A DNA stretch of 10,975 nucleotides from positions 1 to 10,975 of the IMG/VR virus record IMGVR_UViG_2545824708_000027, one strand, 5' to 3'. The position numbers and the translations under genes were made by a program. The notes under the pieces were generated by a model, which did not search any database, was not told the DNA's origin, and saw only the letters and a program-made list of their open reading frames with translations. Positions 8,693 to 8,997 of the stretch are shown here, piece after piece (position 1 is the stretch's first letter; the number at the start of each line of letters is the position of its first letter). The stretch is from a virus. Lineage: Duplodnaviria > Heunggongvirae > Uroviricota > Caudoviricetes.

Positions 8693-8733
8693 AATTACAA
8701 AAACCCTAACCAATTGATGGATTTCTTTTATCT

Positions 8734-8758
8734 GAACTCGCTACGGCGAGTTTTGTTT
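8734..8758 (+). terminator. Rho-independent terminator (or attenuator) directly upstream of the 55-aa gene's RBS
   Basis: Stem AACTCGC / GCGAGTT with loop TACG, followed by TTTTGTTTT. Confidence 0.6.
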
Positions 8759-8772
8759 TATGGAGATGATAA

Positions 8773-8940
8773 ATGCACTTCCGAGTCACAGGTGAATGGA
8801 ATGGAGAACCATTCAACAGAGTTATCGAAGCGGAGAACATCAACGACTGCTATGACCACTGGATGATATGGGCGCAGATAGCGCATGCAGACGTAACCAA
8901 TATTCGAATTGAAGAACTGAAAGAACACCAAGCCGCCTGA
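8773..8940 (+). CDS. Small protein (55 aa), manually found; possibly YpdJ-like
   Basis: ATG 8773 with SD GGAG (8762-8765), in-frame stop just upstream; translation MHFRVTGEWNGEPFNRVIEAENINDCYDHWMIWAQIAHADVTNIRIEELKEHQAA; stop TGA lies in the loop of a downstream terminator hairpin. Homology assignment is unverified. Confidence 0.5.
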   Translation: MHFRVTGEWNGEPFNRVIEAENINDCYDHWMIWAQIAHADVTNIRIEELKEHQAA

Positions 8941-8954
8941 TGGCGGTTTTTTAT
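8932..8954 (+). terminator. Rho-independent terminator overlapping the stop codon of the 55-aa gene
   Basis: Stem GCCGCC / GGCGG(T) with loop TGAT, followed by TTTTTT (8947-8952). Confidence 0.65.
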
Positions 8955-8962
8955 TGCCTGAT

Positions 8963-8978
8963 TTGCAGGTTCGATTCC
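8963..8978 (+). other. 16-nt fragment identical to a tRNA T-arm region (TTGCAGGTTCGATTCC), as I recall tRNA-Arg argW; tRNA-derived att-region remnant
   Basis: Contains the canonical T-loop motif GGTTCGATTCC; the flanks do not form a tRNA; lies 20 nt upstream of the torI start. Confidence 0.45.
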
Positions 8979-8997
8979 CTATTCGGAGATAGCACTC

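Follow-up and report, generated by a model that had tools for sequence, protein, structure and literature searches.

The window, by which we mean the whole 10,975-nt stretch of phage DNA analyzed here, contains a short gene, orf55, that is enclosed by two predicted intrinsic terminators (T1 and T2) and followed by an excisionase gene and the right attachment site of a prophage. The features of this locus, all on the plus strand, are:

8501 to 8692, plus strand: 63-aa ORF with a full-length match to phrog_16329 (E = 8.5e-49)
8719 to 8958, plus strand: mosaic cassette of T1, Shine-Dalgarno sequence, orf55 and T2, equivalent to lambda t4 - orf55 - t5 and delimited by recurring alignment boundaries
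8734 to 8761, plus strand: T1, predicted intrinsic terminator with stem 8734-8741 / 8746-8753, UACG loop and U tract to 8761
8762 to 8765, plus strand: Shine-Dalgarno sequence GGAG of orf55, abutting the T1 U tract, 7 nt before the ATG (8773)
8773 to 8940, plus strand: orf55, 55 aa, whose TGA stop codon (8938-8940) falls in the UGAU loop of T2
8930 to 8955, plus strand: T2, predicted intrinsic terminator with stem 8930-8937 / 8942-8949, UGAU loop and then a U tract
8998 to 9198, plus strand: torI, 66-aa excisionase / recombination directionality factor of the KplE1/CPS-53 type (RefSeq annotation, K-12 b4501 homologue, phrog_66)
9272 to 9286, plus strand: attR core CTGCAGGGGACACCA, which duplicates the argW 3' end as pawZ does and marks the right end of the prophage (K-12 annotation and sequence comparison)

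The T1 hairpin reads GAACUCGC-UACG-GCGAGUUU (8734-8753) and is followed by UGUUUUAU up to 8761, and the T2 hairpin reads AAGCCGCC-UGAU-GGCGGUUU (8930-8949) and is followed by UUUAUU. Both stems have eight pairs, of which four are G-C pairs in T1 and five in T2, and both loops have four nucleotides. The eight nucleotides after the stem contain six U in T1 and five in T2, where the run extends a stem-terminal UUU (UUUUUUAUU). The folding energies were -11.4 to -11.9 kcal/mol for T1 (z = -3.2) and -12.4 to -13 kcal/mol for T2 (z = -2.7), with 2 of 200 shuffled sequences being equally stable in either case. The mean pair probability of the two stems was 0.90-0.97 in transcripts starting up to 260 nt upstream. 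A scan of the whole window yielded 18 terminator-like sites (11.3 ± 3.4 expected), and the top two scores belonged to exactly T2 and T1. With G+C-rich stem-loops that precede a U tract, are more stable than shuffled sequences and dominate the transcript, T1 and T2 are, by prediction, bona fide intrinsic-terminator-like elements. The arrangement that a first-pass annotation of this DNA had described, a 55-aa ORF between two terminators with its stop codon in the loop of the second and an excisionase downstream, was thus recovered with every element in place. A bidirectional reading of T1 and T2 was ruled out by the minus-strand tails, which have no U tracts. One fold also paired 8721-8726 with 8762-8767 in a helix that would sequester the Shine-Dalgarno sequence, but we discarded this helix, as its two G.U pairs leave it weak and the lambda variant, with an A at 8725, breaks it. 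An Rfam scan of 8400-9300 returned no match.

The U tract of T1 does run straight into GGAG, and the gap between the T1 stem and the orf55 ATG is only 19 nt, in which our scan found no promoter-like site. With neither room nor signal for a promoter after T1, orf55 would be expressed only from transcripts passing T1, which upholds the earlier view that its expression needs read-through.

The 55-aa product was 100% identical at the amino acid level to Orf55 of phage lambda (lambdap35; J02459 29121-29285; tblastn). It matched PHROG 676 (phrog_676) over its full length (positions 1-55 of 55, E = 6.6e-40), and no Pfam family was matched. Relative to the lambda copy, orf55 has four synonymous and no non-synonymous changes, and its dN/dS against a 76%-identical Klebsiella copy is 0.10. 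The family is small, with 51 representatives in an exhaustive profile-free search, including proteins of 51-57 aa at 36-53% identity, and the residues W9, N10, E19, E21 and D25 are conserved across homologues of 35-50% identity. The AlphaFold2 model has a mean pLDDT of 92.9 and a beta-beta-alpha-beta fold. Because of the low dN/dS, the retained length of the homologues and the confident model, orf55 is a real coding gene under purifying selection.

In the lambda literature, orf55 is the last ORF of the exo-xis region and is uncharacterized (PMC3824215; PMC8614690). Among the systems closest to Orf55 are small phage inhibitors of the beta-beta-alpha-beta type (T7 Gp2, phi29/VMY22 p56, T4 Dmd and AcrIE2) and the RNA polymerase epsilon subunit. 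The published proposal that Orf55 is Gp2-like is compatible with the predicted structure, which fits it without lending specific support. Orf55 is most likely a putative host-protein-binding early accessory factor.

The identity with lambda extends beyond the gene. Terminators t3, t4 and t5 of lambda, predicted with ARNold, were given in PMC4195576 (Table 4; 2014), and from the same table lambda t4 (TTTTATCTGAACTCGC TACG GCGGGTTTTGTTTTATG) corresponds to T1 and lambda t5 (AAGAACACCAAGCCGCCTGATGGCGGTTTTTTCTTGCGTG) to T2. The sequences are the same except for one pairing-preserving A/G change in T1 and the flanks after the T2 U run. The lambda unit also has the same ribosome-binding site and an excision gene directly downstream. 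It differs in its neighbors, with Xis downstream (TorI here) and ea8.5 upstream (the 63-aa ORF here), in the presence of the third terminator t3, which is missing here, and in its operon, which is transcribed from pL in lambda and is a rightward operon of the Qin/Rac type here. The anatomy of the cassette has therefore already been published for lambda, as a prediction only. We considered whether lambda tL3 might be T1 or T2, and this was ruled out by its position just after exo, where it equals t1 of PMC4195576. Our literature search found no functional test of t4 and t5, the T1/T2-type sites of lambda, and no lambda RNA-seq data that span ea8.5 and orf55.

A total of 3,881 occurrences of the ~240-bp cassette were found, spread over 2,637 of the 5,426 complete E. 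coli genomes. Alignment of copies from lambda, HK140, O157 and other E. coli prophages showed that the unit is near-identical in all of them and that both of its flanks are unrelated. Upstream of T1 lie the 63-aa ORF, ea8.5, a DUF551 gene or a theta-like gene, and downstream the cassette adjoins excisionases that are unrelated to one another (lambda Xis, TorI and the HK140 type). In lambda, HK140, Kapi1 (P22-like, argW), Klebsiella and the O157-type and other prophages at attB-lambda, orf55 is the distal gene of the early-left operon and directly precedes the excisionase. CFSAN061763, O157, GB089 and PI7 have the cassette in this natural position too, and orf55 is present in HK022 as well.

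To describe the variation among copies, we used 80 IMG/VR loci with 96-100% identical orf55. The gene after orf55 encoded lambda Xis at 30 loci, TorI at 29, the HK140 type at 2 and another small protein at 18. At 16 of the 80 loci, the protein encoded after orf55 has 114 aa (89 aa in some) and starts with MSDL(A/S)MKVL(K/E)WQSTGDVG (e.g. at about 1696-2040 in loci L020 and L022); several loci with this gene have a stem-weakening C-to-A change in T2. A T1-type sequence was found in 75 of the 80 loci, with a weakened stem in about 12 of these 75, and was absent in five Kapi1-type copies. T2 was intact in 72 of the 80 and carried stem-weakening changes in the other 8. The commonest variants of the terminators preserve pairing (A-U to G.U in T1, G.U to G-C in T2), and the GGAG sequence is conserved in the lambda, HK140 and O157 copies. 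The absence of T1 from the Kapi1-type copies and the weakened stems of T1 and T2 indicate that the terminator barrier is not indispensable. Both the Klebsiella copy (76% identity) and Flyfo Tbat2_3 (51%) retain a terminator hairpin around the stop codon, with loops that differ. Homologues in Proteus, Morganella and phage 15G have no flanking terminators and no adjoining excisionase.

In most copies, an extra terminator hairpin, T0 (lambda t3; 2430-2460 in the lambda locus L004), lies just upstream of T1; it is missing from the window. At least four versions of the T0 stem share one common U tract, TTTCTTTTATC. This tract forms the left mosaic breakpoint, and the mosaic breakpoints thus fall inside terminator U tracts. 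The cassette resembles a moron: its accessory gene is small and followed by a terminator of its own (T2), its mosaic boundaries are sharp and its neighbors vary. Unlike a moron, orf55 has no promoter of its own in our scan, has a terminator in the promoter's place and would not be expressed autonomously from a repressed prophage.

The 63-aa ORF upstream lies outside the conserved cassette; its stop codon is 41 nt before T1, and the stretch is common to only ~16 complete E. coli genomes. PGAP leaves this ORF unannotated in CFSAN061763. It is preceded by a 112-nt AT-rich gap (8389-8500) with a perfect TATAAT at 8431-8436 and no usable -35 element, which could be a weak or activator-dependent promoter.

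On the other side of the cassette, torI and attR form a module shared with the KplE1/CPS-53 prophage of E. coli K-12, and beyond attR lie the chromosomal csc genes. Homology to K-12 does not set in until the T run that follows T2, before torI. Where the window has orf55 and T2 (8773-8955), K-12 KplE1 has ypdJ and no hairpin (10095-10310 of the K-12 locus L002). A 5-bp hairpin, GCCUG-AUUUG-CAGGU, lies at 8956-8970 in the 5' untranslated region of torI and is kept in TorI-type modules including that of K-12. Menouni et al., in PNAS in 2013, are said to have reported that torI of K-12 KplE1/CPS-53 is controlled by Rho-dependent termination. Consistent with a Rho-dependent shield in K-12, inhibition of Rho by bicyclomycin raises the copy number of KplE1 (PMC11551753). 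In both prophages, termination upstream of torI would keep the prophage in place; the shield differs in being Rho-dependent in K-12 and composed of two intrinsic terminators here.

The window itself is chimeric. Positions 1-7349 are an immunity, replication and nin-type region of the Qin/Rac type that is transcribed toward torI, and about 7389-10975 are the distal (ea) part of an argW, KplE1-type prophage, with the junction lying inside a DUF551 gene (ORF 7308-8114). The left region carries a gene for a cI-like repressor (1736-2509, minus strand), followed by cro and genes of the cII/YdaT-like, O, DnaC-like and Ren-like types. A gene for the DicF sRNA was found at 175-226 on the minus strand (Rfam RF00039, 75.8 bits, gathering score 48), and, lying on the left arm, it identifies the leftward operon as one of the Qin/dicB type. 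Beside DicF, at 23-163, there was a weak sub-threshold match to STnc100. At about 1650-1730 on the minus strand, a strong terminator, AACCCGCATTCATTGCGGGTTTTTTAT, comes right after the cI-like repressor gene and is followed by a promoter-like stretch containing an operator-like inverted repeat, GGTAACTCTTGTTACC. A weak Rfam match to Trp_leader near 1650-1730 is probably just the AACCCGCATTCATTGCGGGTTTTTTAT hairpin. The arrangement of the whole window was present in no complete E. coli genome, and the junction had no exact match in one-genome-per-species contigs. The chimeric window probably reflects recombination between prophages.

In the window orf55 precedes an excisionase, but because of the chimeric structure the operon upstream of it is a rightward one of the Qin/Rac type. 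None of the left-arm ORFs of the window belonged to an N-like family, and the sole boxA-like match, from our search for boxA/nut, was at chance level and on the wrong strand. Since no N or nut was found in the window, an antitermination step here would be putative, and read-through of T1 and T2 in the window may be poor.

The early-left operon of lambda is controlled by the repressor and transcribed by N-antiterminated polymerase, which reads through the early-operon terminators tL1, tL2 and tL3 by N/nut antitermination. Intrinsic terminators within an early operon make the distal genes dependent on terminator-resistant polymerase. Such terminators are likewise part of the lambda tL1/tL2/tL3 and HK022 put systems; compared with tL3, T1 and T2 are different and more distal sites, in a window that yielded no nut, put or N.

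In the reading that we favor and consider likely, the lambda t4 - orf55 - t5 cassette, as the last unit of the exo-xis region, has been joined to the KplE1/argW torI - attR module, and its terminators shield the excision gene. The grounds for it that were observed are the sequence identity, the two stable hairpins, the purifying selection, the wide distribution and the mosaic boundaries. T1 and T2 would act as Rho-independent terminators that halt non-antiterminated RNA polymerase before the excision gene. The genes for Orf55 and the excisionase would then be delayed-early genes, read only by terminator-resistant polymerase after derepression, with the resistance supplied by lambda N, a presumed P22-type equivalent or HK022 put. 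A shield would make functional sense for the KplE1 module, in which low-level integrase is there at all times and the directionality factor TorI alone suffices for excision (PMC2951348). The link to the induction state that the first-pass annotation had proposed stands in so far as the cassette occupies the distal end of a repressor-controlled early-left operon in lambda and Kapi1, but in this form it is trivial.

A possible but rather unlikely alternative is that the cassette is a relic in a locked chimeric prophage, in which T1 and T2, without N or nut, would stop nearly all transcription, leave orf55 and torI essentially silent and prevent excision on induction. The structure of the window agrees with this: nin-type Qin/Rac-like DNA (1-7349) abuts the argW end from about 7389 onward, DicF marks a Qin-type left operon, the whole arrangement occurs in no complete E. 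coli genome, and neither boxA nor an N-like gene was found within it. In the window, then, the cassette may simply block transcription into torI and give a locked remnant. Against this, the ORF, the Shine-Dalgarno sequence, both terminators and torI are intact and near-identical to those of functional phages, the prophage continues to the left beyond the window and may encode an antiterminator there, and terminators are rarely 100% efficient.

The favored shielding model would treat the two hairpins differently with respect to translation. T1 would be expected to function regardless of translation, because it lies 41 nt beyond the upstream stop codon. A ribosome finishing orf55 would instead hinder the folding of T2, whose hairpin contains the stop codon, and T2 would be most effective on untranslated transcripts and probably weaker under orf55 translation. 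Terminators near a stop codon can be repressed strongly, with efficiency falling from ~90% to <10% when the stop codon is 5 bp upstream (PMC4824070), and by extrapolation from that other terminator, tR2, translation probably affects T2 as well. This raises the idea that orf55 is a leader ORF whose translation, beginning just past T1 and finishing within T2, acts in cis to keep T2 open, its protein being secondary; the excisionase gene would then be reached only on transcripts that have got beyond T1 and are under translation. The retention of the stop codon in the T2 loop in Klebsiella and in Flyfo Tbat2_3, despite different loop sequences, speaks for such a gate, as does the strong repression that ribosomes exert on terminators lying only a few bp from a stop codon (PMC4824070). 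We nevertheless regard it as hardly probable: the Orf55 protein is under strong purifying selection and has a confident fold, distant homologues occur without terminators and away from excisionases, and the next gene is not an excisionase in 18 of the 80 loci.

T1 could also be the end of a separate, moron-like unit, in which the 63-aa gene has its own promoter within 8389-8500 and the adjacency of T1 to the orf55 ribosome-binding site is incidental. No other terminator intervenes between the 63-aa ORF and T1, and the gap before that ORF has the perfect TATAAT noted above. This explanation seems improbable to us, since the gap has no acceptable -35 and our scan called no promoter in it, and since T1 travels with orf55 and not with the 63-aa gene, following many different genes and often coming after T0. 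Least probable by far is the attenuator that the first-pass annotation had suggested from the position of T1 immediately before the ribosome-binding site with no promoter between, in which the formation of T1 would depend on a competing antiterminator fold, on a leader peptide or on a ligand and would tune orf55 expression to the induction state: none of the 130 nt upstream offers a segment of at least 6 nt complementary to either arm of T1, the pair probability of T1 is 0.91-0.97 in all upstream contexts so that it dominates every fold, the region has no Rfam match, and the sequence upstream of T1 is wholly different between copies and thus contains no conserved antiterminator or leader.

A more elaborate reading would be a two-step gate before excision genes, which we put forward with considerable doubt. 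T1 would admit nothing but terminator-resistant polymerase or rare read-through polymerase, T2 would open solely under active translation of the transcript, and Orf55 may join the commitment to excision or lytic growth. If true, such a gate would explain why the same 240-bp unit is found directly before three unrelated directionality factors in thousands of genomes.

The feature described here is a lambda module that was known before and is extremely common, and its value as a discovery is small, given that lambda orf55 occurs in about half of the complete E. coli genomes and that its flanking terminators were listed as predictions in 2014. The comparison with K-12 has a bearing on the KplE1-type prophages: the same torI module appears to be shielded by different types of termination, which suggests that some shield before the directionality factor is a conserved requirement.
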